Program-made: the position numbers and the translations under genes
Assembly (NCBI GenBank): GCA_036502345.1
Contig: DASXYT010000400.1
Coordinates: forward strand, 1 to 34,399
DNA from: Pseudonocardiaceae bacterium
Lineage (GTDB): Bacteria > Actinomycetota > Actinomycetes > Mycobacteriales > Pseudonocardiaceae
Direction of reading: 5' to 3'
Length of the DNA stretch: 34,399 nucleotides
Notes under the pieces: generated by a model
Database searches by the model: none
Told to the model about the DNA's origin: nothing
What the model saw: only the letters and a program-made list of their open reading frames with translations
Part shown: in pieces, positions 13,495 through 34,399 of the stretch
How the letters are laid out: every line of letters begins with the position of its first letter
Position numbering within the stretch: position 1 is the stretch's first letter

Positions 13495-13749
13495 CTACCG
13501 GCCGGTGGTCGGCCTGCCGTAGATCTGTCCGATTCCGGGCAGTGTGTCCACGTGGGCCGCCACGACGTGGGCGAAGTTGACCGCGATCGACGAGCCGTTC
13601 CTGGCCGTGATGGTCTCCACACCTCCCTTGCGGATCAGCTCGGGCAGTCCGGCCACGAATTCGTCCTCCGTGTCGTCCGGCACGGAGATCAGCAACGGTT
13701 CGCGGATGCCGGACATGTGCAAGATCAATGCGCGTTTCGGATCGCTCAT
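13495..13749 (-). CDS. Small conserved actinobacterial protein (84 aa), possibly DUF3107-like
   Basis: The ATG at 13749 is preceded by GAGGTCG. The sequence MSDPKRALILHMSGIREPLLISVPDDTEDEFVAGL...ARNGSSIAVNFAHVVAAHVD resembles the DUF3107 pattern as I recall it. It is convergent with the GlfT2 fragment and divergent from a TetR gene. Confidence 0.55.
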   Translation of the reverse strand: MSDPKRALILHMSGIREPLLISVPDDTEDEFVAGLPELIRKGGVETITARNGSSIAVNFAHVVAAHVDTLPGIGQIYGRPTTGR

Positions 13750-13934
13750 GGTCACGACCTCACCAGCGGTGATACGTGCCGGCAAGCCGGGTTCGCTGCC
13801 GGCGCACAGCAGACCCGGGGATTGCGCTCAGGGCGTAATCCGGGCACCCGGTACCGGTCGGTACGGCGGGCGACACGACCGGCGATTGCCCCGAGTCGGC
13901 TTCGCTGTTTCGTTCCGGTGAGAAACTGTTCGGC

Positions 13935-14540: not shown

Positions 14541-14551
14541 CCCCCGTGGCG

Positions 14552-15460
14552 TCACTTGCGGAAGAACTTCTCCTGCCGGCCCTGGCGGACCAGCCGCAGC
14601 CACTCCACGAACGCCTTGGGGTCGCGCCGGACGCCGATGAAGTACAGCCCGAACCGGATCACCTCGAGGGCGCCGATCTTGCGCATGCCGGGCTGGGACA
14701 GCAGGTAACCGCGGTTGCGGTAGGTGTAGTAGCGCTTCACCGGGTCACCGGGGTCCTGGGCGTGGAACCGGCCGCCCAGCATCGGCTTGAACTCCGCCGA
14801 GCCGTCCGGGTGCAGGTAGGCCACCTTCAGCGACGTGCCGAACGGCAGGCCGGAGCGGACCAGCCTGCGGTGCATCTCCACCTCGTCGCCACGCACGAAC
14901 AGCCGGTAGTCCGGCACGCCGATCACGTCCAGCGTGGCCGCCCGGAACAGCGCGCCGTTGAACAGCGACGCGATGCCGGGCAGGAAGTCGGTGCCCAGTT
15001 CCTCGGTGGTGCGCTTCCAGGTCAGGCCCCTGCGCAGCGGGAACGCCAGCCGGTCCGGGGTGTTGATGTCCGCGACCACCGGCGACACCTCGGCGAGGCC
15101 CCGGTTGCGGGCCTCGGCCAGCAGCGTGGCCAGCACCGTCTCGTCGGCGGGGCGGCCGTCGTCGTCGGCCAGCCACACCCAGCCGGCACCCATCGCCAGC
15201 GCGTGCAGCATGCCCAGCGCGAACCCACCGGCGCCGCCGAGATTGCGGTGCGACACCAGGTAGGTGCTGGGCACCGGACAGGCCGCCACGATGTCGCGGG
15301 CCGGCTGGTCAGGGCCGTTGTCCACGACGATCAGATGGTCCGGTGGCCTGCTCTGCGCCGCGATCACCTTCAGTGAGTCGACGAGCAACTCGCTGCGGTG
15401 CCTGGTCACCACGACCGCCACCACGGCGTCATCGCCGAGCGGCGGCAGGTCCTCGGTCAT
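14552..15460 (-). CDS. glfT1: Galactofuranosyltransferase GlfT1 (GT2; primes galactan on the linker unit)
   Basis: The product is 302 aa, against 304 aa for Rv3782. Identity is very strong over long blocks (VVVTRHR, HLIVVDN, RNLGGAGGFALGMLHALA, WVWLADDDG, AEVSPVV, LAFPLRRGL, LPGIASLFNGALFRA, GVPD.RLF.RGDEVE.HRRL.RSGLPFGT, YTYRNRGY, RRDPK). Confidence 0.9.
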   Translation of the reverse strand: MTEDLPPLGDDAVVAVVVTRHRSELLVDSLKVIAAQSRPPDHLIVVDNGPDQPARDIVAACPVPSTYLVSHRNLGGAGGFALGMLHALAMGAGWVWLADDDGRPADETVLATLLAEARNRGLAEVSPVVADINTPDRLAFPLRRGLTWKRTTEELGTDFLPGIASLFNGALFRAATLDVIGVPDYRLFVRGDEVEMHRRLVRSGLPFGTSLKVAYLHPDGSAEFKPMLGGRFHAQDPGDPVKRYYTYRNRGYLLSQPGMRKIGALEVIRFGLYFIGVRRDPKAFVEWLRLVRQGRQEKFFRK

Positions 15461-15498
15461 GCGTCAGAGCTCCGCACTGGTCGGGCTGGGGGTCCGGC

Positions 15499-16317
15499 TC
15501 ATGCTCGCGCACCGGCGTCGGGGAGTACAGCCTCCACACCGAGCCGGGCCAACTGATCCGGCCCCAGGTTCTCGTACGGGTCGCGGCCCTTGTAGGCGGT
15601 CAGCACGTCACGCAGCGGGCCCTGGTGCTTCACGTGCCCCTCGTCCATCCAGATGCCCGTGTCGCACAGCTCCATCAGGAACTCGTCCGAGTGGCTGGCG
15701 AACACAAGTAGACCCGACCGGTTGACCAGGTCGACCAGCCGGTCGCGGGCCTTGTCCAGGAACGCCGCGTCCACGGCGCCGATGCCCTCGTCCAGCAACA
15801 GGATCTCCGGGTTGATCGACGTCACCACACCCAGCGCCAGCCGCACCCGCATACCCGTCGAGTAGGTGCGCAGCGGCATCTGGATGTAGTCGCCGAGTTC
15901 GGTGAACTCGGTGATCTCGTCGACCCGCTTCTCCATCTGCTTGCGGGTCATACCGAGGAAGAGGCCCCGGATGATGATGTTCTCCAGCCCGGAGATCTCC
16001 GGGTCCATGCCGACGCCGAGGTCGAACACCGGCGCGACCTTGCCCTCGATCAGCGCGGAACCACGGGTCGGCTCGTAGATGCCGGCCAGCAGCCGCAGCA
16101 GCGTGGACTTGCCGGCACCGTTGTGCCCGACCAGGCCGACCCGGTCACCCTCGTGCACCGAGAGCGTGATGTCGTGCAGCGCCTCGATGATCGGCACCCG
16201 CTGGTCCATGCCGATCTTGCCGCCGACCTTGCCGAGGACAGCCTTCTTCAGGGACCGCGTTCTGGCGTCGAAGATCGGGAAGTCGACCGACGCGTTCCAG
16301 ACGTCAATGCTCACCAT
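15499..16317 (-). CDS. rfbE: ABC transporter ATP-binding protein, RfbE/Wzt-like (Rv3781-like)
   Basis: Walker A (GHNGAGKST), the ABC signature (YSTGMRVRLAL) and Walker B (ILLLDE) are present. The gene is adjacent to glfT1, as in the Mtb Rv3781-Rv3783 locus. Confidence 0.9.
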   Translation of the reverse strand: MVSIDVWNASVDFPIFDARTRSLKKAVLGKVGGKIGMDQRVPIIEALHDITLSVHEGDRVGLVGHNGAGKSTLLRLLAGIYEPTRGSALIEGKVAPVFDLGVGMDPEISGLENIIIRGLFLGMTRKQMEKRVDEITEFTELGDYIQMPLRTYSTGMRVRLALGVVTSINPEILLLDEGIGAVDAAFLDKARDRLVDLVNRSGLLVFASHSDEFLMELCDTGIWMDEGHVKHQGPLRDVLTAYKGRDPYENLGPDQLARLGVEAVLPDAGARA

Positions 16318-16330
16318 GTCGCGGCCTCAC

Positions 16331-17221
16331 TCACACCCAGTAGGACACTCGGGCCCGGTAGTTGCGCATGACCACCAAGGCCAACGCCCACCCGAGCACC
16401 GTGATACCGCCGACGGTAGCCCAGCTCCACCAGTCCACGTGCTGACCGGTCAGCGGAGCGCGCATGACCTGCACGAAGTGGTACAGCGGGTTGAGCTGGA
16501 ACAGCACCTTGGCCCACTCATTGTGCGACTTGCCGTTGCCGAACAGGTCGTCCGGCGACCACACGATGGGCGTCAGGTAGAAGGCCAGCTGGATGACGCT
16601 GTTGATCACCTGCGGAATGTCCCGGTACCGGGTGGAGATGATCCCGGCGGTCAGTGTCAGCCAGAGGCCGTTCAGCGCCAGCAGCACGAACGCGGGGATC
16701 GCGGTCAGCGACCACAGCCCGAGGCCGGGATGGATCTGCCCGAACGGCACATCCATCTGGTACGGGTGGTCCAGCGCCCCGAAGAAGATCACCAGCATGA
16801 TCACGTAGATGACCAGGTTGTGCAGCATCATCAGCGTCTGGCGCCACACGGTCCGCAGTGCGTAGACCGTCAGCGGGGCCGGCAGATGCTTGATCAGGCC
16901 CTCGTTGGTGATGAACGCGGTCATCCCCTCGGTGAGGCAGCCGTTGATGAAGCCCCACACGATGAAACCGGTGGTGACGTACGGCAGGAACACCGAGATG
17001 GGGTGCTTGAACAGCACCGCGTACAGGACGCCGAGGCCCACCGCCGTGACACCCATCGAGATGGTGATCCACAGCGGACCGATCACGGAGCGCCGGTAGC
17101 GCTGCTTGATGTCCTGCCATCCGAGGTGCGCCCACAGCTCACGCTGGGCGAGGCCCTGCCGGATGTCGTCGATGGCTCTGGTGAAGCTTCTGCTCGCCAC
17201 GCCTGCGGGCGGTCGGTCCAT
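16331..17221 (-). CDS. rfbD: ABC-2 type transporter permease, RfbD/Wzm-like (Rv3783-like)
   Basis: QRELWAHLGWQDIKQRYRRSVIGPLW is the conserved N-terminal cytoplasmic motif of ABC-2 permeases. Six TM helices are predicted. The start is taken as the ATG at 17221 (MDRPPAGV...). The GTG at 17323 is an alternative, but it would put the start 8 nt from the terminator-like hairpin. Confidence 0.85.
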   Translation of the reverse strand: MDRPPAGVASRSFTRAIDDIRQGLAQRELWAHLGWQDIKQRYRRSVIGPLWITISMGVTAVGLGVLYAVLFKHPISVFLPYVTTGFIVWGFINGCLTEGMTAFITNEGLIKHLPAPLTVYALRTVWRQTLMMLHNLVIYVIMLVIFFGALDHPYQMDVPFGQIHPGLGLWSLTAIPAFVLLALNGLWLTLTAGIISTRYRDIPQVINSVIQLAFYLTPIVWSPDDLFGNGKSHNEWAKVLFQLNPLYHFVQVMRAPLTGQHVDWWSWATVGGITVLGWALALVVMRNYRARVSYWV

Positions 17222-17330
17222 CGTGCTGGTTGCTGGCACGTCATGGAGGGTACCGGCGCGTGGTCGCCCATCTGGTGGCCGGTAGCCGGAGCGTGACCAT
17301 GGCCGTGTTCCTTTGGTGGCCACCGCACAG

Positions 17331-17362
17331 CCCGACCTGCCCGAGCTTGCGGGCAGGTCGGG
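17331..17362. terminator. Perfect 13-bp-stem hairpin (CCCGACCTGCCCG / loop AGCTTG / CGGGCAGGTCGGG) immediately downstream of bpa. It is a factor-independent terminator candidate.
   Basis: The inverted repeat is exact. It lies 41 nt after the bpa stop and upstream of the rfbD start. No strong U-tract follows it, as is common in actinobacterial terminators. Confidence 0.45.
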
Positions 17363-17402
17363 CTGCTGTTCTCAAGACCTTTGCGCAGGCCTACCGATCT
17401 GA

Positions 17403-17951
17403 TTACAGATATTGACCGGTACTGCGCAGGTGCGGCCCCTCCGACCCGTCACCGCCGGTGCCCGGCGGCAGCGCGCCCCTGCGCATCTGCTCCAACTGCA
17501 CCCTGGCGGCCATCTGCTGGGCGAACAGCGCGGTCTGGATGCCGTGGAACAGGCCCTCCAGCCAGCCGACCAGTTGGGCCTGTGCGATCCGCAGCTCGGC
17601 CTCGGACGGCGCGCTGTCCTCGGTGAACGGCAGTGACAGCCGCTCCAGTTCGTCCCGCAATTCGGGCGCCAGGCCGTCCTCCAGTTCCAGGATCGACCGC
17701 TGGTGGATCTGCTTGAGCCGGTTGCGGCTGGCCTCGTCCAGCGGCGCCGCGCGCACCTCTTCCAGCAGTTGCTTGATCATCGTGCCGATCCGCATCACCT
17801 TGGCCGGCTGCTCGACCAGGTTGCTCACGTCGCTGCCGCCCTCGATCTCACCGTCGACCATGTCCGGCATCGGCGCGGTGCCCAGCGGCGTGCCGTCCGG
17901 GCCGACCACGACGACGTGCCGCTGCCCGGTGCCGTCCGCTGCCTCACTCAT
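17403..17951 (-). CDS. bpa: Bacterial proteasome activator Bpa/PafE (Rv3780-like)
   Basis: The product is 182 aa and ends in the GQYL proteasome-docking motif (..HLRSTGQYL). The helical middle region resembles Rv3780. A strong SD (TAGGAGG) sits 8 nt before the ATG. It is adjacent to the RfbD/RfbE locus, as in Mtb. Confidence 0.85.
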   Translation of the reverse strand: MSEAADGTGQRHVVVVGPDGTPLGTAPMPDMVDGEIEGGSDVSNLVEQPAKVMRIGTMIKQLLEEVRAAPLDEASRNRLKQIHQRSILELEDGLAPELRDELERLSLPFTEDSAPSEAELRIAQAQLVGWLEGLFHGIQTALFAQQMAARVQLEQMRRGALPPGTGGDGSEGPHLRSTGQYL

Positions 17952-18077
17952 GACTGTGTCCTCCTAGGGGGTCCGTCGATGCCCAGCCTAGTGCGGTCGG
18001 GGTAATCCGAGGTGGCGACCGGTCAGCGGCCGGTACCCTCCGGCCGTCGCATTTCAGGGGCTCCGTACGGTGTGCCC

Positions 18078-19277
18078 ATGGCGTTGGACGTCGCTCGAAT
18101 TCGCGGGTTGTTCCCCGCGTTGGGCGACGGCTGGATCCACCTGGATGCACCGGCAGGCATGCAGATACCCGAACAGGTGGCCACGGCAGTGTCTATGGCC
18201 CTGCGCGCGCCGGTGTCCGGTCCGGGCGGTGTGTTCCCCGCTTCGCACCGCGCCCAGGCCATCGTGGACGCGGCTCGAAGGGCGGTCGCCGACCTCGTCG
18301 GCGCCGACCCGGCCGGGGTGGTGCTCGGGCCGAGTTCCGCGGTGCTGCTGGCCCGGCTGGCCGATGCGCTGGGCGCCGGCTGGCTGATCGGCGACGAGGT
18401 CGTGGTGTCCCGGCTGGACCACCCGTCCAACACGGCGCCGTGGCAGCAGGCGGCGCAGCGCTGCGGTGGCATCGCGCGCTGGGCCGAGATCGACATCGAG
18501 ACGTGCGAGTTGCCCGCCTGGCAGTACGACGACCTGGTCACCGCACGCACCAAGGCGGTCGCCATCACGGCGGCGTCCGGCGCGGTCGGCACCCGGCCGG
18601 ACCTGAACCGGATCTCCGAGACCGCCCGGCACGCCGGTGCCCTCGTCATCGTGGACGCGTCGTCGGCTGCGCCGTTCATGCCTGTCGACATGGCCACCCT
18701 CGGCGCGGACATCGTGGTGCTGTCCGCCAGCGCGTGGGGCGGCCCGCCGGTGGGCGCGCTGGTGTTCCGCGATCCCGCGCTGCTGGACCGGCTGCCGTCG
18801 TGCTCGCTGGAGCCCGGCGCCAAGGGGCCTGAGCGGCTGGAACTCGGGCCGCACCCGTACTCGCTGCTGGCCGGGCTGGTGGCGTCGGTGGACTACCTGG
18901 CCGAGTTGGACGATTCCGCCAGCGGGCCGAGGCGGGAGCGCGTGCTCACGTCGATGGGCTCGATGAAGGCCTACCAGGCCGGGTTGCTGGCCGGCCTGAT
19001 CAGCGAACTGCGGTCACTGCACAACGTGATGGTCATCGGCGACGCGATGCGGCGGGTGCCGGTGTTCGCGTTCGCCGTGGCCGGGGTGCGTGCCGAGGAC
19101 GCCGTCGAGCACCTCGGCAAACGAGGCATCTGCGCGTTCGCCGACAACGGCCACAACGGTGTGTTCGCGGCCCTGGGCATCGGCGAGGTCGGCGGCGCTG
19201 TGCGGGTCGGCCTCGCGCACTACACGAACACCGTCGAGGCCGACCAACTGGTGCGCAGCGTCGCCGAACTGGGTTAG
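18078..19277 (+). CDS. Class-V aminotransferase / cysteine desulfurase-like PLP enzyme (Rv3778c-like)
   Basis: The fold I class V pattern is present (RLDHPSNTAPWQ; a Lys-containing region; the C-terminal domain). The start is taken at the ATG at 18078 (MALDVARIRGLFPALGDGWIHLDAPAG); the track ORF begins at 18012. The gene sits next to bpa on the other strand, as Rv3778c does in Mtb. Confidence 0.8.
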   Translation: MALDVARIRGLFPALGDGWIHLDAPAGMQIPEQVATAVSMALRAPVSGPGGVFPASHRAQAIVDAARRAVADLVGADPAGVVLGPSSAVLLARLADALGAGWLIGDEVVVSRLDHPSNTAPWQQAAQRCGGIARWAEIDIETCELPAWQYDDLVTARTKAVAITAASGAVGTRPDLNRISETARHAGALVIVDASSAAPFMPVDMATLGADIVVLSASAWGGPPVGALVFRDPALLDRLPSCSLEPGAKGPERLELGPHPYSLLAGLVASVDYLAELDDSASGPRRERVLTSMGSMKAYQAGLLAGLISELRSLHNVMVIGDAMRRVPVFAFAVAGVRAEDAVEHLGKRGICAFADNGHNGVFAALGIGEVGGAVRVGLAHYTNTVEADQLVRSVAELG

Positions 19278-20257
19278 TTCGCCTTCAGCACGACCTTGCC
19301 GACGGCCTGGCTGCCCTCCACGATCCGATGCGCGTCGCTCGCCTGCTCCATCGGCAGCGTCTGCCCGATGACCGGCTTGACCTTGCCCGCCTCGATCAGC
19401 GGCCACAGCTGCGCTGTCACGGCAGCGATGATCTCCGCCTTGCTGCCGGGCCCGTCGACGGGCCGGCCACGCAGTCCTGTCGAGCCGACCGATGCCCGCT
19501 TGCCCATCAGCGAACCGATGCTGAGTTCCGCGCGGTTGCCACCCTGCATGCCGACGATCATCAGCCGGCCGCCGATCGCGAGTGCGTCGATGTTGCGGTC
19601 CAAATAGGACGCACCCATGTTGTCCAGGATGACGTCGGCGCCGTTCGTGGCGGCCTTGATCTCCGCGACGAAGTCCTGCTCCCGGTAGTTGATCAGGATG
19701 TCGGCGCCGAGGGCCTTGCAGTGTGCGAGCCGGTCCGCCGAGCCCGCCGTGGTGGCGACCGTGGCGCCCAGTGCCTTGCCGACCTGGATGGCGTGCGTGC
19801 CGATGCCGCCGGCGCCGCCGTGCACGAGCAGTGTGTCGCCGTCGGCCAGGCCGGCCAGCGTGACCATGTTCGACCACACGGTGCACGCCACCTCCGGCAG
19901 TCCGGCCGCGGCCACCAGGTCGACACCCTTCGGCAGCGGCATGAGCTGCGCGGCCGGCACGGCAACGCGCTGCGCGTAGCCACCGCCTGCGAGCAGGGCA
20001 CACACCTGGTCGCCGACCTGCCAGCCGGTGACGCCCGCGCCGAGTTCGGCGATCGTGCCGGAACACTCCAGCCCGAGGATGTCGGACGCGCCGGGCGGCG
20101 GCGGGTAGTGGCCCTGCCGCTGCAACAGGTCGGCCCGGTTCACCGCGCTGGCCGCCACGTCGAGCAGCACCTCGCCGTCACCGGGCGTCGGGTCGGGGAC
20201 TTTCGCCCACGTGAGGACTTCCGGGCCACCGGGTTCGCTGATCGTGATCGCGTACAT
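19274..20257 (-). CDS. qor: NADPH:quinone oxidoreductase (zinc-independent MDR superfamily, Qor-like)
   Basis: The product is 327 aa. The N-terminal MYAITISEPGGPEVL and the Rossmann motif GGAGGIGTHAIQVGKALGA are present, and it ends VVLKAN. The start is the ATG at 20257. The 570-aa track ORF is an upstream artefact. Confidence 0.85.
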   Translation of the reverse strand: MYAITISEPGGPEVLTWAKVPDPTPGDGEVLLDVAASAVNRADLLQRQGHYPPPPGASDILGLECSGTIAELGAGVTGWQVGDQVCALLAGGGYAQRVAVPAAQLMPLPKGVDLVAAAGLPEVACTVWSNMVTLAGLADGDTLLVHGGAGGIGTHAIQVGKALGATVATTAGSADRLAHCKALGADILINYREQDFVAEIKAATNGADVILDNMGASYLDRNIDALAIGGRLMIVGMQGGNRAELSIGSLMGKRASVGSTGLRGRPVDGPGSKAEIIAAVTAQLWPLIEAGKVKPVIGQTLPMEQASDAHRIVEGSQAVGKVVLKAN

Positions 20258-21433: not shown

Positions 21434-21518
21434 GGAAGCGTGGCAGAGCGGCCGAATGCATCCGCCTTGAAAGCGGAAGACGGGCAACCGTCCGGGGGTT
21501 CAAATCCCTCCGCTTCCG
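21434..21518 (+). tRNA. tRNA-Ser (anticodon TGA, decodes UCA). It has a long variable arm and no encoded CCA.
   Basis: The sequence folds by hand as follows. Acceptor stem GGAAGCG/CGCTTCC, perfect 7 bp. A 3-bp D-stem. Anticodon stem TCCGC/GCGGA with loop CTTGAAA. A long variable arm AGACGGGCAACCGTCCG. T-stem GGGGG/CCCTC with T-loop TTCAAAT. Discriminator G. Confidence 0.85.
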
Positions 21519-21520
21519 CA
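21465..21520 (+). repeat. 56-bp direct repeat, copy 1. This is the 3' portion of tRNA-Ser, from the anticodon loop through the discriminator plus CA.
   Basis: The sequence CCTTGAAAGCGGAAGACGGGCAACCGTCCGGGGGTTCAAATCCCTCCGCTTCCGCA is repeated exactly at 22687-22742. Confidence 0.85.
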
Positions 21521-22686: not shown

Positions 22687-22742
22687 CCTTGAAAGCGGAA
22701 GACGGGCAACCGTCCGGGGGTTCAAATCCCTCCGCTTCCGCA
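22687..22742 (+). repeat. 56-bp direct repeat, copy 2 (partial tRNA-Ser 3' half; attR-like)
   Basis: It is identical to 21465-21520. The flanking bases diverge immediately outside the repeat on both sides. Confidence 0.85.
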
Positions 22743-24727: not shown

Positions 24728-24890
24728 CTGACCACTATCGTGGTTCGGTCGATGCGGTCCGCGCAGACCCCCTCTCGGCGCGGTCCGACACAATTGCGAG
24801 ACGGGCCGGACCAGGCCGAACGAGACTCCTGGCGGTGACTACTGGGAACAAACGTGGCCAGTACTATCACTGTTGTGTACGATTGTTCCC

Positions 24891-25469
24891 GTGGTGGAGA
24901 GGCTGGATCAGTTGCCGGCGACCTTCAGCTACCGGGAAGCGCGCGAGCGGGGTGTGTCCAAGCGTCAGTTGTACCGGTGGCGTGACGACGGTGCGATCGA
25001 AGTGCTGAGCCGTGGCCTGTACCGGCGAATGAACGCCTCGCTGGTGGACACAGACCTGATCGAGATCGCCCATCGCGCGCCCGAGTCGACCTTGTGCCTG
25101 ACATCGGCGCTGGTCCGGCACGGCTTGAGTGACGCGATCCCGGCGGCACACGATGTGGCGATACCGAGAGGACGCCGTCCCCCCGTCGTGTCGGCGCCGG
25201 TGACCTGGCACCGGTTCGATCCCGACACCTTCGGTGTCGGCCGCGAGGCGCTGCCGTTGGACGAGCAAGTCACGATCGGCCTGTACAGCGCTGCCCGCGC
25301 GATCGTGGACGCATTCCGACTGTCTGGCCAGCACGGCTATGACGTGGCGTACGAGGCGCTACGTCGTTGGGTGCGCGCTGATGGGACGCCTGCAGACCTG
25401 TTGGAAGTCGCGTCGCACTTCCCTCGAACGATTCCCCGTCTGCGGACCGCCCTGGAGATCCTGCTGTGA
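24891..25469 (+). CDS. AbiEi-like (type IV TA antitoxin / transcriptional regulator family) protein
   Basis: The N-terminal domain (LPATFSYREARERGVSKRQLYRWRDDGAIEVLSRGLYRR) matches the AbiEi_4 pattern, which has an L-P-x-x-F region followed by G-x-Y-R. Start candidates are the GTG at 24891 or the TTG at 24873. Its stop overlaps a downstream ATG as ATGA, as is typical of abiEi-abiEii pairs. Confidence 0.65.
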   Translation: MVERLDQLPATFSYREARERGVSKRQLYRWRDDGAIEVLSRGLYRRMNASLVDTDLIEIAHRAPESTLCLTSALVRHGLSDAIPAAHDVAIPRGRRPPVVSAPVTWHRFDPDTFGVGREALPLDEQVTIGLYSAARAIVDAFRLSGQHGYDVAYEALRRWVRADGTPADLLEVASHFPRTIPRLRTALEILL

Positions 25470-25656
25470 CCGACAATCGCCCCACCGGCAGGGCCTTCTG
25501 GAACCACGTTGCGCCGATGGCAGCGTGGCGACGCAAACAGAAGCTCGACATCGTCCTACCCGAGCAGTTCCGGGACATCCTGGCTGCCGTCCGGGCTATG
25601 GTGCTGAAGATCAAGACCAGTGCGCACCACTCTCTCGGCGAACCCGCTGCTGGTCG
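25466..25656 (+). pseudogene. Possible remnant of the AbiEi partner (toxin) gene. Only about 60 codons remain before the ORF runs antisense into the next gene.
   Basis: The ATGA overlap with the AbiEi stop is present. The first roughly 60 residues look protein-like (MTDNRPTGRAFWNHVAPMAAWRRKQKLDIVLPEQFRDILAAVRAM...). Beyond about 25650 the frame becomes Ser/Ala/Arg-rich, which is an antisense artefact, and it overlaps the convincing minus-strand gene 25657-26862. No nucleotidyltransferase (KGG) motif is seen. Confidence 0.25.
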
Positions 25657-26862
25657 TCAGGATGGTGTCGGGGCTGCGTCCGTGACCTGGCCGACGAGTT
25701 CCGAGGGCAGACCGGCTCTCTCGGCGAGCCACAGGGCCCACTCCGCGAACATCGACTTGACGGCAAGTGTCGCCGGGTGGTCCGGAATCCAGTCGCCGTC
25801 GATCAGTTCGGTGTGGAACTCGACACGGTGTGGCGAGATCAGATACCGAGTCTCGGGCAGAGTGCCTTCCAGCCATTCTTCGGCGAGCGCTTCGACGGTC
25901 TCCTGCTCGGGCGGCGTGTCGTGGCGGTCGGCGTACCAGGAGGAGAACTCCGTCACCATCGGTTCGGCGTCCAGGTCGTGGTACAGCGACTCGGGATCCG
26001 GCCAGAGCCGAGGCGACTTGCGGAGCGCGTGCGCGATGTCGTGGACGCACCGGTTCGCCCTGAACCAGTTGTCGAGCACATCGCGAGCTTCGTCGCCGTT
26101 GACCATGTCGCTGCCGATGTCGCACTGGGCGAGGCAACTGAGCTGCTCGCCGGTGTGCACCTCGACCGGCTCGGCGCCGGCCGCCTGGTCACCGACCAAT
26201 GTCCGCCAGGCCGCGGCCGCCTGCGGCAGGTCGTCATAGGCTCCCGCGTGGGTCAGCGTGATGAATCCGCATGCGTCGATATCGAACAGGAACGCTGACG
26301 GATTGGCACCGTGCGGGTAGGACATGGCCGCCAGCACGGCGAGCCGTGTGCCGTACGCGTCCTGCATCCGCCAGACTTCGCCGGTCGCCTTGACCAGGTG
26401 CGACGACGCCAGCCAGCGTGGCTGCCGCGCGAACGCGGGTCGTCGCCTGGCGACCTTCAGCAGGCCGTTGATCTGATGGCGGGCGAACGACCGCAGTGCC
26501 GGGGAGCCGATCGCGGCCAGGCCGTGCAACAGCAGCCAGTCGCCTGTCAGATCGTCCGCGTCCCGGACGCGGTCGGCGGCGGCCACCGTCAGTTCTTCGA
26601 ACAACCAGTTGAACCGCAGGTCGCGTCCTACGTCGTGGATGGCCCGATGCATCTGCTCGCCCAGCAGTTCGCAGGTGGCCTGTTCCAACTCGCGCGGACC
26701 AGCCGCCTTACTGAGCGCATCCGTGTTGTCGAGGACGGCCGCGATGGACCCGGCGAACCAGGACGGCCGCTCGCGAACGGCTGCCGGCTCGTGGTCGATC
26801 CATTCGGAGCTCGACCGCCGCACATTGTGCTTCTTCTTGCGAACCTTCGACGCGGGCGACAT
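25657..26862 (-). CDS. Hypothetical protein (401 aa), function unknown
   Basis: The long ORF has a balanced composition and a Lys-rich N-terminus (MSPASKVRKKKHNVRRSS). Its C-terminal region shares a short TEF(A/S)SW..D.H motif with the N-terminus of the 646-aa protein. Confidence 0.65.
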   Translation of the reverse strand: MSPASKVRKKKHNVRRSSSEWIDHEPAAVRERPSWFAGSIAAVLDNTDALSKAAGPRELEQATCELLGEQMHRAIHDVGRDLRFNWLFEELTVAAADRVRDADDLTGDWLLLHGLAAIGSPALRSFARHQINGLLKVARRRPAFARQPRWLASSHLVKATGEVWRMQDAYGTRLAVLAAMSYPHGANPSAFLFDIDACGFITLTHAGAYDDLPQAAAAWRTLVGDQAAGAEPVEVHTGEQLSCLAQCDIGSDMVNGDEARDVLDNWFRANRCVHDIAHALRKSPRLWPDPESLYHDLDAEPMVTEFSSWYADRHDTPPEQETVEALAEEWLEGTLPETRYLISPHRVEFHTELIDGDWIPDHPATLAVKSMFAEWALWLAERAGLPSELVGQVTDAAPTPS

Positions 26863-27429
26863 CTGCCGATGTTATGACAAGGGTAGGACTTGGGTATGGA
26901 CCAGGACGAACTCCGGCGACGTTTCGCCGCGCTGACCACCGCCCACCTGGCCGACGGATCGCGGGCCATATGTGCCCGGCCCGGCATTTCAGCCTGGGCA
27001 CGATCCCCACCGGCCCACTGCACCTCGGCACCGCCCCGACGATGCGCTGGAGTCCGCCACCGTCGGCGAGTGGACGGTCGGACAGGCCGACCAGATCCGC
27101 TCCGGTGGGTCCCTACGCGACCAGGTCCGGTTCGACGCCTACCTCGCCGCCCGCCAACAGAAACCATCACTCAGCTTCCGCGACCACCTGCGAACCGTAC
27201 GCGGCGAGATCGAGGTCTGACGCCTCAGCTCCAGTCCCTGGGCTGCGCCATGCGGGTTCCGGCGACCACGTTTACCGCGGTTGTAGCAGTACGAGATGAG
27301 CGCAATATCGTCATACGTGAGCGCTGACCTGTGAGACAATGAGACCTGCTCAATTAACTGCTGTCGAAGTGTGGGCGGAGCGCAGTCTTGCTAACTACCG
27401 CCCGTAGGGAGCTGGATAGGACCGGAGGT

Positions 27430-27962: not shown

Positions 27963-28532
27963 CTACTTTCCGGCGGTCGGGCTCGGCAAGGACGCCTTGA
28001 AGGACGCCGTCCACTGTGTCACCGGGCTGGTACAGGATTTGCCGTCGCCGGTCGCACACGTCTGGCTGTTCCACACCAGGAAGCTCAGCACCAACACTCC
28101 CACCAGGACCAACCCGTGGATTCGCCGCGTTATCGCGAGCGCGGGGAGGCCTGCCCGTGCCGCCCCTTGTAGTCGGTCCGCCACAGTCATGACGGCTGTC
28201 CCGTACGCGTAGACGACTTCGTGCGGGGCCCGACCGAAGCCGCGCGTCACCCGGCTGATCCCGAGGTCTGGCAGCAGCAGGAATACCCGAAGCAATTCCA
28301 TGAGCTCGACCACCGGCCGCACCAGGATGGTAGCCAGCCACGGGATGACGCGCCTCGTGATCAGCCGGAGCAAGGCGTAGCAGCCGATGCCGGCCAGAAC
28401 GAGCTCGAAGAATGTGCGCAGCCAGAACGTGATCCCGATTTGCGCCGCGATGCCGTCAACCAAGGTTACGAGATAACCCAGCAGCGGTGTGCCGCTGAGC
28501 GGGTTGAGCACCTCGCTGAGGTGGTGGACCAT
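27963..28532 (-). CDS. Small integral membrane protein (189 aa, about 4 TM). It is the last gene of the TIR/STAND/SPFH operon.
   Basis: Hydrophobic helices are present (LLGYLVTLVDGIAAQIGITFWL; LVLAGIGCYALLRLI; GLVLVGVLVLSFLVW). Its ATG overlaps the upstream SPFH gene stop as TAATG. Confidence 0.7.
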   Translation of the reverse strand: MVHHLSEVLNPLSGTPLLGYLVTLVDGIAAQIGITFWLRTFFELVLAGIGCYALLRLITRRVIPWLATILVRPVVELMELLRVFLLLPDLGISRVTRGFGRAPHEVVYAYGTAVMTVADRLQGAARAGLPALAITRRIHGLVLVGVLVLSFLVWNSQTCATGDGKSCTSPVTQWTASFKASLPSPTAGK

Positions 28533-29527
28533 TACTCGTCCTCCTCGTCGCCCTGGTCCATCGGTCCCAGGTCGATAGGCCCTGACACCGCAGGCTGCTG
28601 GTCCGCCTTGCCGATACCGAGCGCGCTGACGCCACGCAACTTGTCGATCACGATGCTGCTGGCGTTCGCCATGATGGCCGCTACGTCCTTCCGGTTCACC
28701 AGGTTCGCGTCCAGCAATTGGTTCAACACGGTGTTGGCGCCCTCGAACTCCAGCCGTTTCTGCTGCATGATCAGGTTGATCACATCATTGACGTCCTCGG
28801 TGTGCCCGGCCAGTCGCAACGCCAGCACATTGAGGTCGTCGGTCCGCAGCGCGTCGGCATAGAATCGCATCCGCTGCTCCTTCAACTGCAACTCGTGCTG
28901 CTCCTGGGCCGTCTCCAGTTCCCGCTTGTGCTTTGCCCGGAGCAGTTCCAAATCGTGGTCGTACCTTTCGCGTTCCTGCAGGCGCCCGGCCAGCGTGCGG
29001 TTGGCGATGTGTTCCCTTGTGGCATCGTCGAGTACCAGCACCACGGTGCAACGACTGACGACAACCGCTTTGGACACTTCGATCGCGCGATCGCCATAGT
29101 GCAGGTTGATCCTCCGTTCCGCGTCGGCACTGTGTTCTACCTCGTAGCCGCGGGTCACCTCGCGGAGCCGCTCCTCAAGGTAGCTACCGATGAACGGCAG
29201 CGGATTCGTGAGCCTGCCTGCGACGGCGGCCACCGGGTCGGCCACGCGCCAAGTGACCCGTACCTGCGCGGTGAAGGTGAACGCCTCCTCCATCGACGGC
29301 AGTTGGAGTTCGATGCTCTCCTGGTGCGGGGCGACATCGACCTGGTACACCTCCTTCGGAGTGCGCAACCAGAGCTCACCGTGGGTCAGCCGGCTGCTGC
29401 CGACTTCGTACCGGCCCTGTTTGGTCAGGTACACGACAGCGGTGTGACCGGATGAGACCGGGTTGAGCTTGCGCAGCGTGTTCCGGTCAGCAGCGAGTTG
29501 CTCGATGATCGCGTTGGGCTCGGCCAC
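28532..29527 (-). CDS. Soluble SPFH/band-7-like domain protein with a long C-terminal coiled coil (flotillin-like), about 331 aa
   Basis: The region TAVVYLTKQGRYEVGSSRLTHGELWLRTPKEVYQVDVAPHQESIELQ...TAQVRVTWRVADPVAAV resembles the SPFH core. It is followed by heptad-rich stretches (LELLRAKHKRELETAQEQHELQLKEQRMRF) and an acidic tail. The GTG start at 29527 lies 2 nt after the NTPase stop, with AAGGGG upstream. Confidence 0.65.
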   Translation of the reverse strand: MAEPNAIIEQLAADRNTLRKLNPVSSGHTAVVYLTKQGRYEVGSSRLTHGELWLRTPKEVYQVDVAPHQESIELQLPSMEEAFTFTAQVRVTWRVADPVAAVAGRLTNPLPFIGSYLEERLREVTRGYEVEHSADAERRINLHYGDRAIEVSKAVVVSRCTVVLVLDDATREHIANRTLAGRLQERERYDHDLELLRAKHKRELETAQEQHELQLKEQRMRFYADALRTDDLNVLALRLAGHTEDVNDVINLIMQQKRLEFEGANTVLNQLLDANLVNRKDVAAIMANASSIVIDKLRGVSALGIGKADQQPAVSGPIDLGPMDQGDEEDE

Positions 29528-29528
29528 G

Positions 29529-31736
29529 TCAGGCCCCTTTCTCGTCGAAGAAGGACAGCAGGGCCCGTGCGGCGTCGGCAGGACCGCCGCGCTCACTCGC
29601 CCAATACTGGAGGTAGTAGCGGATGCTGGGTAGTTCCTCGGACTTCTCGCCGATGTCGAGCAACAGTTGGGCCAGCGGTTCCCGCAATGTGGTGTCCCGC
29701 TGTGCGATCTTCACCCAACGGCGGATCTCTAGATACCCCCGACGCATGAATTCCGCAGCCTGGAGCATCCTCGCGAACAGCGTCAGAATATCGTCCCTGT
29801 TGGCCGACACGCGGTCGGCCATCCATATGAAGATGGGCCATTTCTCGGTGCTCTTGTCGACGTTGACGACGACGTAACAGGACACGATGAGCACCGACAA
29901 GAGTGCCGTCTCCCGGCGTTTGGGATGTTCGTCCTCGTCCGTCCAGCGCACCAGTGCCTGCAACACCTGGCTGGCGTCGTCCACTCGGCAGAACAGCTCG
30001 CTGATGCTCTCACCAATGGTGTATGCCATGGTCCAGTCGGCCTTGCGGGCCGCGTAGCGCAGCTGCTGCAGCGCCGCGCCGGGACTCATGGCCGTTGTGC
30101 TGCCGAGGGCTTGCGCTGCCGTCACGCGCCGGTTCCACAGCTCGCCCTGCGTGGCCGGGTGCCGTATCCATGTTCGGAGCAGTCGATAAACCACACGCGC
30201 GAAAGCCGGGTGCTGCCCGGGAATTTGAAGCGCGGCCACTGCTGCCTTGCGTTCGTCCTCGTCCCCGGACTGGGCCCACACCTCGATGACCGAGGACACG
30301 CTCGTGAAGTCGTAGAGGCTCAGCAGCCCAACCGCCATGCCTGCCCGAATCCGGACGCCCGCACCGCGTGTCCCGCCCAGGTCGTGCAGCCATTTCAGGA
30401 CGATGTCCAGTGCCTGGTCGTACTCGGCGACGAGGTGCTCCAGGACCCGCAGGGGCAGCCGCGCGTCCCGGAATCGTGCGCGTTTCACAGGTACCGTCCC
30501 GAACGGCGTTTCCTCGGTGCCGTCGACCAGTTCTGCCCGGGCGTCGGCCAGTCGTCCGTGCAGCGGTCGTTCGAACACCGGTCGGGCCCTGTCCATGCGA
30601 CGGGGGACCTCCACCACCTTGATCCGCTCGGCCAGCATTTCCGCGGCTGCGGCCACGAGTTGCACAGGTTCGTTGTTGAAGACCGACAGCGCGATCACGA
30701 AGGCCCGCTGCTCGATCTCCTGCTGCTGATCGAACCACTCGATGAAGCTGCTCTGGCTCGTCCGCGAATACCGCTCTTTGACCACCTCCACGTCGATCCG
30801 CTCTCGCGCGACCTCCACGAGGAGGGCGGCCAACTCGGCGAGCTCGCGGCGCGGCACGTCATCGGTCAGCTGGTCGACGATCTCGCGGACCTCGTCGCGG
30901 TCCAGGACAGCCGCACCATCGGCGGCGCGCGCCGATCCCTGCAGGCTCCATGTCACGTGCCTGCGCAGCAGCACTGCCGGTTCGATGGCGCCGATGTCGT
31001 CCACCACGAGGTGGCCCACCTCGCTGAGCCGCAACGATGTCGTCGCGTCGATGACCACGACGAGCCGACAACCCTTGTCCGCCATGAGCTGGGCGAGCTG
31101 TTCGGTGTGGTACGACTGAAGCTCCAGCGCCTGCTCCGGCTCCAGCGACTCCATCAGATAGCCATGGTTCGCCGCCAGGTCCTGCTCGCGTAGCGCCTTG
31201 AGCCGGGCGTCCGGATCGAGTTTGCGGACACCCTCCGTGCACGTGTCGTCCAGCAGGCGCAGCGCGGTCGTCGTGCGGCCGGTGCCCGCCCGGGCCCGCA
31301 GCAGGACGAGATGGTCCCTGGCCAGTCGTCGCCTGACGTCGTAATAGTTGCCAGGTTCGACGTAGCAGTCACGGATACCATCCAGGACCGGCCTGGGCAC
31401 CAGGCCACTGCGGACCACGAAGCCAAGGTGACCCGACGTTCCCGGCGTTAGATAACGGTCCCCGAGCGAACCGACGACAGTGTCACCGAAGAACACGTTC
31501 GCTGTACCCCCGCCCACCAGCGCGCGTAGGGCGGCGTCCATTTCAGTGCTGAAGCTCCGCCACTTTCGTGCGTTCTCCGGATCGGATGCCTTGTCCTGTG
31601 CGCTGTCGGCGTCCTTCTTCTCGTCCTTCTCGTCCGTGTGGACCTTGTCGGACTGGCTCTTGTCGGCCTGCTGTGACGGCTCCTCGGCCACGTGCTCTTC
31701 TGCTGCCTTGGTCTCCTCCTGTGCCTCATTGGCCAT
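29529..31736 (-). CDS. STAND-like P-loop NTPase (735 aa). It has a disordered acidic/Lys-rich N-terminus, an NB-ARC-like core with the Walker A variant GTGRTT, and a C-terminal helical-repeat (sensor-like) region.
   Basis: HLVLLRARAGTGRTTTALRLL fits the STAND strand-1 plus GxGGxGKTTLA motif, but with Arg in place of Lys. CRLVVVIDATT, about 75 aa downstream, fits Walker B. The C-terminal 400 aa are predicted all-helical. The ATG at 31736 overlaps the TIR gene 3' end by 11 nt (ATGGCCAATGA) and is preceded by GGCGGGGG. Confidence 0.75.
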   Translation of the reverse strand: MANEAQEETKAAEEHVAEEPSQQADKSQSDKVHTDEKDEKKDADSAQDKASDPENARKWRSFSTEMDAALRALVGGGTANVFFGDTVVGSLGDRYLTPGTSGHLGFVVRSGLVPRPVLDGIRDCYVEPGNYYDVRRRLARDHLVLLRARAGTGRTTTALRLLDDTCTEGVRKLDPDARLKALREQDLAANHGYLMESLEPEQALELQSYHTEQLAQLMADKGCRLVVVIDATTSLRLSEVGHLVVDDIGAIEPAVLLRRHVTWSLQGSARAADGAAVLDRDEVREIVDQLTDDVPRRELAELAALLVEVARERIDVEVVKERYSRTSQSSFIEWFDQQQEIEQRAFVIALSVFNNEPVQLVAAAAEMLAERIKVVEVPRRMDRARPVFERPLHGRLADARAELVDGTEETPFGTVPVKRARFRDARLPLRVLEHLVAEYDQALDIVLKWLHDLGGTRGAGVRIRAGMAVGLLSLYDFTSVSSVIEVWAQSGDEDERKAAVAALQIPGQHPAFARVVYRLLRTWIRHPATQGELWNRRVTAAQALGSTTAMSPGAALQQLRYAARKADWTMAYTIGESISELFCRVDDASQVLQALVRWTDEDEHPKRRETALLSVLIVSCYVVVNVDKSTEKWPIFIWMADRVSANRDDILTLFARMLQAAEFMRRGYLEIRRWVKIAQRDTTLREPLAQLLLDIGEKSEELPSIRYYLQYWASERGGPADAARALLSFFDEKGA

Positions 31737-32811
31737 CGCTACCCCCGCCGAAGTAGTAGTTGTTGTTGTCGCCGATCCTGCCCATCATCACGTCGCCGTA
31801 GAAATAGTTCCTTCTGCCACCCGCGTCCTGCTGTGTCTGGCTGTCGGACCGTTTCGGATATCCGGGCACGCGGACCCAGCCAACCTGTGAGTCTGACAAC
31901 TCGACGGCCTGGTAGTCGGCGGGATTGGACCTGGGGTTCGCGGTGTGGATGACATCCTGATACCAGCGTTGAGACAGCACGAACAATATTCGGGCGCGTG
32001 GCGTGGTTTCCAGAATGTCGCGCAGAACAGGAGCGTCGGCCATCGTGGTGGCATCGATCGTGGTTTCGCTGTCCCATTCGCCACCGGTGACCACTTCGCC
32101 TCCGTGCACCGAGATTCGCAATGCCTGGGCCAGCGTGCGCCGCTGGACAACTTCTTCCTCGATCGCCGGCAGGAGGAACGTGAGCACATCGGATTTGGAC
32201 GCGATGTGTGAGGGAAGCAGGGCGACCACCCGGTGGTCGGATCGCGCGACCAGTGCGGGCGGCAGGTTCATCCGGCAGGCACTGAGAGCGGCGATCAAGA
32301 TTGCGGTCAGAGCCACGTCCGGCTCAGCCGAGGCGAGCACGATGACGGACATGGTGCTCGTCAGCGGATCGGGAGCCGAGTCGGTGTCGAGCTTGGCATT
32401 GATCATCAGGACCAACTCGGCGGGCGACGTCCGGCGTGCGTCGATGTAACCGATGCTATCGAGTAGTCCGGGAATTCTGGTGTCGTCGAATCGGACCGGC
32501 AGGATGTACGCAGTTCGGCTGCGCAGTGCTCGCTCCTGCGCACTCTTCCGCTCATGATTGGTCCAAATTTTCCGAGCGTAGTCTGCCGATGCGAAAAGCA
32601 CGCAGTATCGTGAGTCGTGGCCATAGACCTCGCTCAGGTGCGTATACAGATCGCGGCCCAATAGGTCAGCGGTCTCGTACTCGTCGTAGAACACTGCTAC
32701 ACCGGCGCTCTTCAACAACCGCGCGACGTCGGCGACATAGTGCCGCTGCTCTGCGGCGAACGACAGACACACGTCGTACGTCTCGGCCGCAGGGCCGACC
32801 TTCTCAACCAC
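31726..32811 (-). CDS. TIR-domain protein (about 361 aa). It has an N-terminal TIR with the catalytic Glu preserved, a C-terminal domain of unknown fold, and a Gly/Tyr/Asn-rich tail.
   Basis: TYDVCLSFAAEQRHYVADVARLLKSAGVAVFYDEYETADLLGRDLYTHLSEVYGHDSRYCVLFASADYARKIWTNHERK matches the bacterial TIR pattern (YDVFLS...; (S/A)xxY(A)xSxWCxxE with the Glu at W+4). The GTG start at 32811 is preceded by GAGGGGGA with 6-nt spacing. An alternative ATG lies at 32865. The tail reads RRNYFYGDVMMGRIGDNNNYYFGGGSDGQ. Confidence 0.8.
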   Translation of the reverse strand: MVEKVGPAAETYDVCLSFAAEQRHYVADVARLLKSAGVAVFYDEYETADLLGRDLYTHLSEVYGHDSRYCVLFASADYARKIWTNHERKSAQERALRSRTAYILPVRFDDTRIPGLLDSIGYIDARRTSPAELVLMINAKLDTDSAPDPLTSTMSVIVLASAEPDVALTAILIAALSACRMNLPPALVARSDHRVVALLPSHIASKSDVLTFLLPAIEEEVVQRRTLAQALRISVHGGEVVTGGEWDSETTIDATTMADAPVLRDILETTPRARILFVLSQRWYQDVIHTANPRSNPADYQAVELSDSQVGWVRVPGYPKRSDSQTQQDAGGRRNYFYGDVMMGRIGDNNNYYFGGGSDGQ

Positions 32812-33021
32812 CCGAATCCCCCTCGGGAATGAACCACTGTCCGCAACATGTGCAGCAGACGCCATACGACTCGCCGTTGCATCCCGTATTGCGGAACTGT
32901 CCAGATGTTGTCCAGTAGGGCAGCGGTCGACCGTCCGCCGTGGATGCGCCAACAGGCTCGCCACGGTCAGCTGTATCCCAGAGGAGCGTGCTTGTGACGG
33001 AGGGTAGTCGCTACCCTTAGA

Positions 33022-33045
33022 CTTGATTGATTCCAGAAAAGAGTG
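33022..33045 (+). promoter_or_regulatory. furA promoter/operator (CTTGATTGATTCCAGAAAAGAGTG), AT-rich FurA-box-like
   Basis: It closely resembles the M. tuberculosis pfurA region as I recall it (CTTGACTAATTCCAGAAAAGGGAG). A TTGATT -35-like hexamer and a CAGACT -10-like hexamer end about 8 nt before the furA GTG, which suggests a leaderless or very short-leader transcript. Confidence 0.45.
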
Positions 33046-33058
33046 CAGACTTCGGCAC

Positions 33059-34399
<1,341 letters not shown>

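Follow-up and report, generated by a model that had tools for sequence, protein, structure and literature searches.

Dyrka et al. (2020) described bacterial gene pairs in which an effector and an NLR are joined by short shared amyloid motifs, the bacterial amyloid signalling sequences (BASS). The motif lies at the C-terminus of the effector and at the N-terminus of the NLR, the adjacent genes overlap, and the hosts include actinobacteria. In the published pairs the effector lies upstream, 91% are collinear and 42% of the open reading frame (ORF) pairs overlap; TIR2 and guanylate-cyclase effectors as well as 'all-in-one' fusions have been recorded (Dyrka et al., 2020). BASS/NLR systems occur preferentially in multicellular bacteria, and most of their roles are uncharacterised (Dyrka et al., 2020); Bab/Agp (BASS11) has been shown experimentally to be an antiphage abortive-infection pair (Ibarlosa et al., 2024). 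A related literature describes NTPase-centred conflict systems, in which variable and often inactive effectors, such as TIR domains and cyclic nucleotide monophosphate (cNMP) cyclases, are tied to an nSTAND or iSTAND NTPase via effector-associated domains (EADs) (Kaur, Burroughs, Iyer, & Aravind, 2020, 2021). EAD1 serves these systems as a homotypic effector-adaptor domain. Actinobacterial conflict systems couple cNMP cyclase with Band-7 domains, and many of these cyclases are inactive (Kaur et al., 2020, 2021). Here we analyse a four-gene locus on the minus strand of contig DASXYT010000400.1 of a Pseudonocardiaceae bacterium (assembly GCA_036502345.1); the whole stretch of 34,399 nucleotides (nt) that was analysed is referred to as the window. 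We give a slightly better than even chance to reading the locus as a cassette for conflict or regulated cell death that is conserved among actinobacteria and in which an NLR-like receptor and its effector are joined by a self-templating, BASS-like motif. Most likely, the cassette is a variant, not described so far, of the immune gene pairs that use amyloid signalling in filamentous bacteria and fungi, and it is distinguished by an nSTAND3/HEAT receptor, a TIR effector with a fossil cyclase domain, and obligate SPFH and membrane partners.

Four consecutive ORFs occupy the minus strand in the region 27963-32865 of the window. Gene 1 (31726..32811, 361 aa from a GTG at 32811) encodes the effector, gene 2 (29529..31736, 735 aa) an NLR-like NTPase, gene 3 (28532..29527, 331 aa from a GTG at 29527) an SPFH/Band-7 protein, and gene 4 (27963..28532, 189 aa) a small multi-pass transmembrane (TM) protein. 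An earlier first-pass annotation, made from the letters of the window, had read these packed genes as one translationally coupled operon, and both the ORFs and the junctions confirm this view. The TIR stop and the NTPase start at 31736 share an 11-nt overlap, ATGGCCAATGA, and a TAATG merges the stop of the SPFH gene with the TM start at 28532, both as claimed previously. The junction between the NTPase and SPFH genes reads TGA-c-GTG, and the GTG at 29527 thus sits 1 nt past the NTPase stop, not 2 nt as stated before. Each of the four starts is preceded, at a distance of 6-9 nt, by a purine-rich, Shine-Dalgarno-like stretch: GAGGGGG for GTG 32811, GGGGG for ATG 31736, AAAGGGG for GTG 29527, and GAGGAGGA for ATG 28532. 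The longest ORFs holding the TIR and the SPFH genes extend further upstream (31726-33186 and 28532-29596, respectively, both on the minus strand). The TIR gene had previously been assigned an ATG start at 32865. We most likely deal with the GTG at 32811 instead, because it is preceded by the GAGGGGG stretch and because the identical public protein P0034 has a length of 361 aa. A scan of the operon for promoters and terminators returned sites that were no commoner than in shuffled sequence.

To follow the locus across genomes, we scanned one genome per species, which yielded 41 loci. In tblastn with the four proteins of the operon, the genes for the effector, the NTPase, the SPFH protein and, where present, the TM protein follow each other in this order across loci L001-L038. 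About 35 independent actinomycete loci are arranged in this way, the genes overlapping by 4 nt or standing 1 nt apart, and the genera with the cassette include Amycolatopsis, Lentzea, Saccharothrix, Actinokineospora, Umezawaea, Actinosynnema, Nocardia, Streptomyces, Phytohabitans, and Hamadaea. The full order of upstream gene, NTPase, SPFH and TM was observed in Amycolatopsis, Lentzea, Saccharothrix, Umezawaea, Actinosynnema, Nocardia, and Streptomyces; the NTPase and SPFH genes also occur in more distant metagenome-assembled genomes of Pseudonocardiaceae, in Phytohabitans, Hamadaea, and others. Most of 37 loci have effector and NTPase genes that overlap by 4-14 nt. Of 39 loci, about 30 have an SPFH start that shares 4 nt with the NTPase stop or trails it by 1 nt, which supports the start at GTG 29527 in the window. 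The NTPase and the SPFH protein form the constant core of the cassette, the SPFH protein being as constant as the effector. Co-occurrence of the genes, which the first-pass annotation had put forward as a test of its operon, was thus observed in order across Pseudonocardiaceae, Nocardia, and Streptomyces. The flanks of the cassette vary from genome to genome and are non-syntenic.

About 30 close homologues of the NTPase were found in Pseudonocardiaceae, all labelled 'hypothetical'. When 1.84 billion representative proteins were searched with the NTPase profile, 754 clusters at 50% identity were assigned to the family (E≤1e-30), and most of the best 150 matches listed aligned over nearly their full length. 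The NTPase family is thus a large one that lacks annotation. The cassette as a whole is likewise unannotated and fairly widespread in actinomycetes. PADLOC, run on the window proteins of the operon, recognised only the TIR domain and named no system, and NCBIfam added nothing. This agrees with the first-pass annotation, which did not recognise the module as a named system; the accompanying notion that a split TIR/NLR pair is without precedent does not hold, as such pairs are known from Dyrka et al. (2020).

The effector and the NTPase carry a common motif. In the window, the effector-side copy GGRRNYFYGDVMMGRIGDNNNYYFGGGSDG (31732..31821, minus strand) makes up the 30 residues that precede the C-terminal Gln, and the receptor-side copy GGTANVFFGDTVVGSLGDRYLTPGTSG (31431..31511, minus strand) corresponds to aa 76-102 of the NTPase. 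The two copies align locally with a score of 60 and are identical at 12 of 30 positions. In nearly every locus, both partners share such a motif of 17-30 residues, rich in G, N, V, and D. On the effector it follows a PGYPxPP-type linker; on the NTPase it is found 55-130 residues into the protein, just ahead of the P-loop domain. Examples, each given as effector C-terminus and NTPase N-terminus, are GKTTTNTFFGQTSIDHLGDNN and GTGTNNIFFGTTSVATLGDNH in L008, GVTANNMFVGDVQAQMIVGRDNVSRPA and GFSANNLFLGSVQVDTLIGRDNYARTA in L019, DGETTLNFYDKVRATTIVGRDQTNHY and DSSTTTDFRARVAVAHDLIGRNQINHY in L028, and IHAKNFIGGDAIIGTQVGGDNING and IHATNFIGGDATIGTQVGGDNIGG in L021, the last pair being identical at 21 of 24 positions; the pair of L023 matches at 23 of 30. 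The first-pass annotation had pointed out the split of TIR and STAND into two genes, but had overlooked the motif shared by the pair.

Cognate motif pairs reached a mean Smith-Waterman score of 55.8, compared to 35.3±1.8 when the partners were permuted (0 of 5000 permutations attained the observed value) and 23.6±4.9 for shuffled sequences. Since the loci are related, the permutation test is conservative. The motif co-varies between both genes, locus by locus, and judged from these alignments its pairing is very probably real. At the DNA level, the motif-coding segments of the effector and receptor sides are 83-87% identical in L021 (7873-7938 and 8226-8291) and L023 (7810-7877 and 8154-8221). 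The L021 segments differ at 11 positions, nine of them synonymous and two non-synonymous according to a codon count by eye. The predominance of synonymous differences suggests that selection has kept the peptides matched, and speaks against a fresh duplication. No DNA repeat was detectable for the motif pair of the window.

The NTPase-side motif of 30 homologues has invariant N80, F82, and G92 and nearly invariant G84 and D93. Overall, the motifs consist of 16% G, 8% V, 8% D, and 7% N, with 1.5% K and 2.5% P, which agrees with the compositional bias known from BASS (Dyrka et al., 2020). Both copies reside in segments of the AlphaFold2 (AF2) models with a predicted local distance difference test (pLDDT) score below 50, comprising residues 76-108 of the NTPase and the low-pLDDT tail of the effector. 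The window effector contains a partial second repeat of the motif (NYFYG...NYYFG). By eye, the Pseudonocardiaceae motif N-F-F-x-G-x-T-S-V-G-Q-V-G-D comes nearest to the BASS3 subset 'NTFxGPTAxQ[VI]GD'. The disorder and the compositional bias are indirect evidence for an amyloid nature of the motif, the chance of which we consider to be about even.

The effector is composed of a TIR domain, a degenerate class III cyclase-homology domain, a Pro-rich linker, and a disordered tail ending in the BASS-like motif. The TIR domain (32392..32781, minus strand, ~aa 11-140) matches Pfam TIR_2 with E=1.5e-15, and is a member of the TIR family; in PADLOC, gene 1 matched PDC-S66 at 4e-13 and, weakly, ThsB (E=1.7e-4). 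Its 'WTNHE' aligns to 'WTNYE' of the NADase AbTIR, the Glu of which is the catalytic residue, and the corresponding Glu is invariant among 20 homologues (alignment A4). The earlier claim of an intact catalytic Glu is borne out by this alignment, and the window TIR is plausibly an NADase. Describing gene 1 simply as a TIR protein was correct for the TIR domain, but missed the cyclase-homology half and the tail motif. That second half (31867..32364, minus strand, ~aa 150-315) was modelled by AF2 with pLDDT values above 90. It is also the only part of gene 1 that is conserved in distant loci as judged by tblastn. A profile built from 23 sequences of this domain retrieved the adenylyl cyclase Ma1120 with E=7.9e-5; its matches to further cyclases were weaker.

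All TIR-fused cyclase-homology domains, including that of the window, have lost both metal-binding Asp residues. The stand-alone cyclase-homology effectors of Nocardia and of L028-L038, in contrast, keep both (VVDVE, DRGDG), and several of them retain the Asn/Arg pair as well. The full set of metal-binding Asp and Asn/Arg transition-state residues is present in L028-L030, L032, L037, and P0235, and lost in the window and in every TIR-fused form. From the sequence, the window domain is thus predicted to be catalytically dead, and the stand-alone domains of the relatives are apparently competent. The spectrum of effectors extends further. TIR-alone effectors occur in two loci (L022 and L033), and the L035 effector contains two cyclase domains. 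In P0235 a cyclase-homology domain is fused straight onto the NTPase (hhalign E=2e-33), a fusion that may be a gene-calling artefact. In P0333, HTH_3, EAD1 and YukD-like domains precede the NTPase, and EAD1 takes the place of the motif. With apparently active cyclase, TIR plus dead cyclase, TIR alone, and double cyclase all represented among the relatives, we conclude that the effector head is interchangeable.

Gene 2 codes for an acidic disordered N-terminus, a helical hairpin, the BASS-like motif, an nSTAND3-like P-loop NTPase, a helical/winged region, and HEAT repeats. The AF2 model (pLDDT 80) displays the disordered acidic N-terminus, the hairpin and the disordered residues 76-108, followed by an alpha/beta P-loop domain, a helical/beta-hairpin module and approximately 300 residues of HEAT-type repeats. 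The C-terminal HEAT/ARM-type repeats (29532..30449, minus strand, ~aa 430-735) presumably serve as sensor or interaction domain. Across the family, nSTAND3 is matched by 25 of 30 members (best E-value 8e-6) and HEAT_2 by 16 of 30. The Walker A motif of the window protein, 'GTGRTT' (31269..31286, minus strand, aa 151-156; alignment A1), has an Arg in place of the canonical Lys. An Arg (GTGRTT or GWGRT) is also found in most NTPases of Pseudonocardiaceae and Nocardia, and Lys in L014, L015, and the distant clades. The window Walker B, 'VVVIDATT', is devoid of the Glu found in most homologues (VVIVDEST). The canonical combination of Walker A Lys and acidic Walker B pair is accordingly missing from the window protein, while Lys and Asp-Glu occur in some relatives. 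By sequence, the NTPase profile gave no meaningful match in the PDB; fold searches were dominated by HEAT/ARM repeats and generic AAA+ ATPases, with Avs5 as the only STAND structure. 'NLR-like' is a description of the architecture of gene 2 and not of strict STAND membership. The first-pass annotation was right about the disordered N-terminus, the P-loop and the helical repeats of its STAND NTPase, but its NB-ARC-like label gives way to sub-threshold nSTAND3 and AAA+/HEAT fold matches.

Gene 3 encodes an SPFH domain, a long helical region, and an acidic tail. It scores 27.0 bits against Pfam Band_7 (gathering cut-off 23.6), and PF01145 is precomputed on several homologues. Hydropathy analysis detected no TM segment in gene 3, consistent with its earlier description as a soluble protein. 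We detected 55 SPFH relatives; all of those with a named source are actinobacterial. Among the papers searched, none connected SPFH proteins to TIR/STAND defence operons. Compared with the PDB, the SPFH profile had a sole match, to OmamC/Rv1363c of M. tuberculosis (9r33, E=3e-4), a similarity that is probably due to coiled coils. It covers positions 216-326 of the SPFH profile A3 (window ~28550-28880), i.e., the helical tail. OmamC/Rv1363c is an orphan Mce-associated membrane protein.

The product of gene 4 has four hydrophobic segments according to hydropathy analysis, in agreement with the 4-TM protein proposed initially. Members of its family occur only in the clades of Pseudonocardiaceae, Nocardia, and L022, and an alignment of 18 orthologues revealed conserved LLLPD/E and VY.YG motifs and a tail of the type C-x(7-9)-C-x-S/A-P-x3-W. 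Pfam, PADLOC, and NCBIfam contained no known family matching gene 4. A relationship to PycTM as a diverged member was considered and dismissed (BLASTP E=1.8, hhalign probability 0.3%, no Pfam match for 15 orthologues). The same three databases gave no SLOG, Macro, SAVED, or cNMP-binding domain in gene 3 or gene 4.

In distant cassettes, the fourth position is occupied by vWA proteins, by a PP2C_2 phosphatase (E=2.7e-21), or by PycTM (L047), and the SPFH protein can be fused to a vWA-like domain. The PP2C_2/vWA variants (L028 11082-12215; L032 9857-11587 and 11674-12351; L036-L039) resemble TerY-type vWA/PP2C modules. In L042, L046, and L047, which have cyclase-type effectors, genes for cNMP_binding-HTH_Crp regulators and stand-alone PycTM (PF18967) proteins adjoin the cassette (L047 6303-12128; L046 15500-16692; L042 2268-4430). 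In L047, PycTM is the fourth gene, directly 3' of the SPFH gene. These arrangements suggest a membrane effector at the fourth position and, for the versions with an active cyclase, signalling through cNMP. In the Actinokineospora locus L045 (13250-17815), and also in L007, four overlapping genes in the same orientation (752, 376, 265, and 127 aa) come after the SPFH gene, in place of the one for the TM protein. None of the four post-SPFH products of L045 had a significant Pfam match, the 752-aa protein showing only a marginal one to a P-loop GTPase.

Taken together, we propose the following course of events. Gene 2 would be the receptor, an nSTAND3-type P-loop NTPase with C-terminal HEAT repeats and a motif of ~25 residues in its disordered N-terminus; gene 1 would be the effector, a TIR NADase with a dead cyclase-fold domain, a Pro-rich linker and the same motif. 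A cue sensed via the HEAT repeats would cause the NTPase to oligomerise, and the N-terminal motifs would thereby be clustered into a beta-rich seed. The seed would template the C-terminal motif of the effector, whereupon the effectors would polymerise and their TIR domains form composite active sites. TIR NADases need such composite active sites, and both TIR enzymes and class III cyclases need oligomerisation. The likely outcome would be depletion of NAD+ or release of a signal derived from ADP-ribose (ADPR), followed by growth arrest or death. Signalling would take place on or near a platform of SPFH protein and membrane, with gene 3 and gene 4 most likely acting as oligomeric membrane platform or executioner.

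Several observations weigh against this model. Its weakest step is the assumption that the SPFH and TM proteins form a membrane-associated oligomeric platform or executioner. For BASS1, 2, 3, 4, and 6 we rebuilt hidden Markov models (HMMs), using the validation subset of the sequences released with Dyrka et al. (2021), and the motifs mostly scored below 5 bits against them. The best scores, 9.1 for the L013 effector with BASS3 and 9.9 for the L017 effector with BASS2, were no better than the maxima of 7-11 obtained with shuffled sequences. An assignment of the motif to one of these five families was therefore not supported. The STAND label of gene 2 rests on nSTAND3 matches that are sub-threshold (E=0.004 for the window protein), and neither domain nor fold searches returned a NACHT or NB-ARC match. 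With its nSTAND3-like and HEAT domains, the window receptor lies outside the NB-ARC/NACHT plus TPR/WD architecture of the published BASS pairs; it would therefore have been missed by the published BASS screen. Moreover, the changes in the Walker motifs suggest that gene 2 may bind nucleotide as a switch with little or no hydrolysis. PADLOC has no models for three of the four proteins, which is absence of evidence and does not speak for a role in defence. The genomic context adds to these points: six annotated contexts of homologous cassettes showed mostly metabolic neighbours and no defence islands, and the viral contigs scanned with the NTPase profile contained no relatives. The defence-island argument is weak for these two reasons, and the 'typical defence-island context' invoked in the first-pass annotation is not supported; an AbiEi-like gene lies 2.5 kb away from the operon.

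In a rival reading, for which the poor HMM scores speak, the shared motif would be an ordinary heterotypic docking peptide, acting for instance by beta-strand augmentation or as an EAD-like adaptor, that tethers the effector to the NTPase in a defined complex. The locus would still encode an NTPase-controlled TIR effector, but amyloid templating would not be involved. The relative with a globular EAD1 at the position of the motif, and the other one with the effector fused to the NTPase, fit this explanation, as proximity alone may therefore suffice. Docking partners, however, should expose complementary surfaces, and what we observed was near-identical sequence on both proteins. Furthermore, the G/N/V/D-rich, K/P-poor composition, the disorder, and the partial second repeat in the window effector are traits of self-templating. 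We thus regard the docking peptide as unlikely. An improbable alternative is a second messenger of the Thoeris or Pycsar type, in which the TIR or cyclase domain would produce a cyclic ADP-ribose (cADPR) isomer or a cNMP that activates the membrane protein or the SPFH protein as killer. It draws on the apparently active cyclases next to cNMP_binding-HTH_Crp and PycTM genes in L042, L046, and L047, on PycTM at the fourth position of L047, and on the weak ThsB similarity of the TIR domain. In the window, however, the cyclase domain is without both metal-binding Asp residues, the SPFH and TM proteins carry no ligand-binding domain of the kinds searched for, and the TM protein is unrelated to PycTM. 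Such signalling would also leave the matched motifs unexplained.

A shade less probable still is a non-immune role, namely a module for development, allorecognition or membrane stress by which filamentous actinomycetes would set off regulated cell death or dormancy locally. The restriction of the cassette to filamentous, 'multicellular' actinomycetes speaks for such a role, as do the mostly metabolic neighbours, the absence from the viral contigs scanned, and the enrichment of BASS/NLR systems in multicellular bacteria. The patchy distribution of the cassette and its variable insertion sites speak against it. Effector swapping and rapid co-evolution of the motif are typical of conflict systems, and Bab/Agp, the sole BASS pair tested so far, is antiphage. 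The receptor-effector cassette joined by a BASS-like motif is our preferred reading.

In its most far-reaching form, this reading describes a new and widespread actinobacterial immune system, in which an amyloid-type motif relays from an nSTAND3/HEAT receptor to an interchangeable TIR NADase or class III cyclase, with an SPFH cage and a TM protein as third module. This version is possible, and we regard it as doubtful. If true, it would be the first case known of amyloid templating switching on a TIR enzyme, the SPFH module would be the nucleation site of a signalosome or a membrane executioner, and the system would be a bacterial counterpart of plant NLR immunity associated with SPFH (HIR) proteins. 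An amyloid-type tag would then be a simple, switch-like activator, and amyloid signalling would extend from pore-forming to enzymatic effectors. The constant SPFH partner provides a testable connection of membrane-scaffold proteins to NLR-like signalling in bacteria, and the series from active cyclase via TIR plus dead cyclase to TIR alone offers a natural experiment in effector replacement. Because the NTPase family is unannotated and invisible to PADLOC, a class of candidate immune loci has been missed in antibiotic-producing actinomycetes.

The surroundings of the operon in the window look accessory. The operon has a guanine-cytosine (GC) content of 64.1% compared to 69.7% for positions 1-20000, a smaller contrast than the 60 versus 70% quoted before, and the region from 21.5 to 33 kb (GC 62-66%) contains several ORFs without a family. 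The furA and katG neighbours named in the first-pass annotation were both confirmed, furA adjoining the operon (FUR E=8e-16) and katG by motif in the frame starting at 33483. The tRNA assigned to the flank was a tRNA-Ser; the nearest one, 0.8 kb away from the operon, is in fact tRNA-Arg(ccg) (27064-27152), with tRNA-Ser(tga) farther away at 21434-21519. The 3' 56 nt of tRNA-Ser(tga), at 21465-21520, are repeated exactly at 22687-22742, 1222 bp downstream. From its sequence, this duplication is att-like and would enclose either a short insertion or what is left of an integrated element. It flanks another 1.2-kb segment, and no att-type repeat bounding the operon was found; no comparable repeat is present at tRNA-Arg(ccg) either. 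An AbiEi antitoxin-like gene is located at 24873-25469 on the plus strand, 2.5 kb from the operon (PADLOC AbiEi E=3e-51; Pfam AbiEi_4). No AbiEii toxin was recognised beside it, the ORFs at 25466-26239 (plus strand) and 25657-26862 (minus strand) having no family matches. The GC content, the tRNA-Ser duplication, the AbiEi-like gene, the family-less ORFs and the tRNA-Arg together fit horizontal acquisition.

How does the locus compare with described systems? With Thoeris it shares a TIR domain with intact catalytic Glu and weak ThsB similarity, but the other three proteins of the operon include no ThsA-type (SIR2/SLOG/Macro/TM) effector. The link to Pycsar consists in the PycTM and cNMP-binding genes beside three relatives (L042, L046, and L047), whereas the window cyclase is predicted to be dead and the TM protein is unrelated to PycTM. 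Neither system has an NTPase with matched motifs. Avs and bNACHT proteins, bacterial antiphage NLRs with fused TIR or other effectors, resemble the window NTPase in combining an NTPase with a repeat sensor and in the activation of a TIR effector by oligomerisation as proposed here. The window effector, however, is a separate gene joined by the motif, the NTPase belongs to another clade and has an Arg in Walker A, SPFH and TM partners are present, and no Avs or NLR model in PADLOC matched the window NTPase. Plant HIR proteins are SPFH-family oligomeric scaffolds tied to an immune or cell-death pathway and physically associate with NLRs. Beyond the SPFH fold the resemblance is one of analogy only, and the window SPFH protein differs in being without lipidation sites and TM anchor. 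The NTPase-centred EAD systems share with the cassette exchangeable effectors, a short homotypic adaptor, enrichment in multicellular prokaryotes, and the coupling of cNMP cyclase and Band-7, and the relative P0333 even carries EAD1. In contrast to these systems with their globular EAD or Death-like domains, the window adaptor would be an unstructured amyloid-like peptide; Band-7 stands alone as a translationally coupled protein and is not built into a vWA component, and a ternary MoxR/vWA/VMAP core is missing. Compared with the BASS pairs, the window effector is not a Bell-type pore former, and the operon has two more obligate genes, those for the SPFH and TM proteins. Otherwise the likeness is extensive: an effector gene lies directly upstream of, collinear with, and overlapping the receptor gene, a motif of ~25 residues, rich in G, N, and V and poor in K, P, and L, is found at the C-terminus of the effector and the N-terminus of the receptor, TIR2 and guanylate-cyclase effectors and 'all-in-one' fusions are on record for the BASS class, and actinobacterial hosts are common to both.

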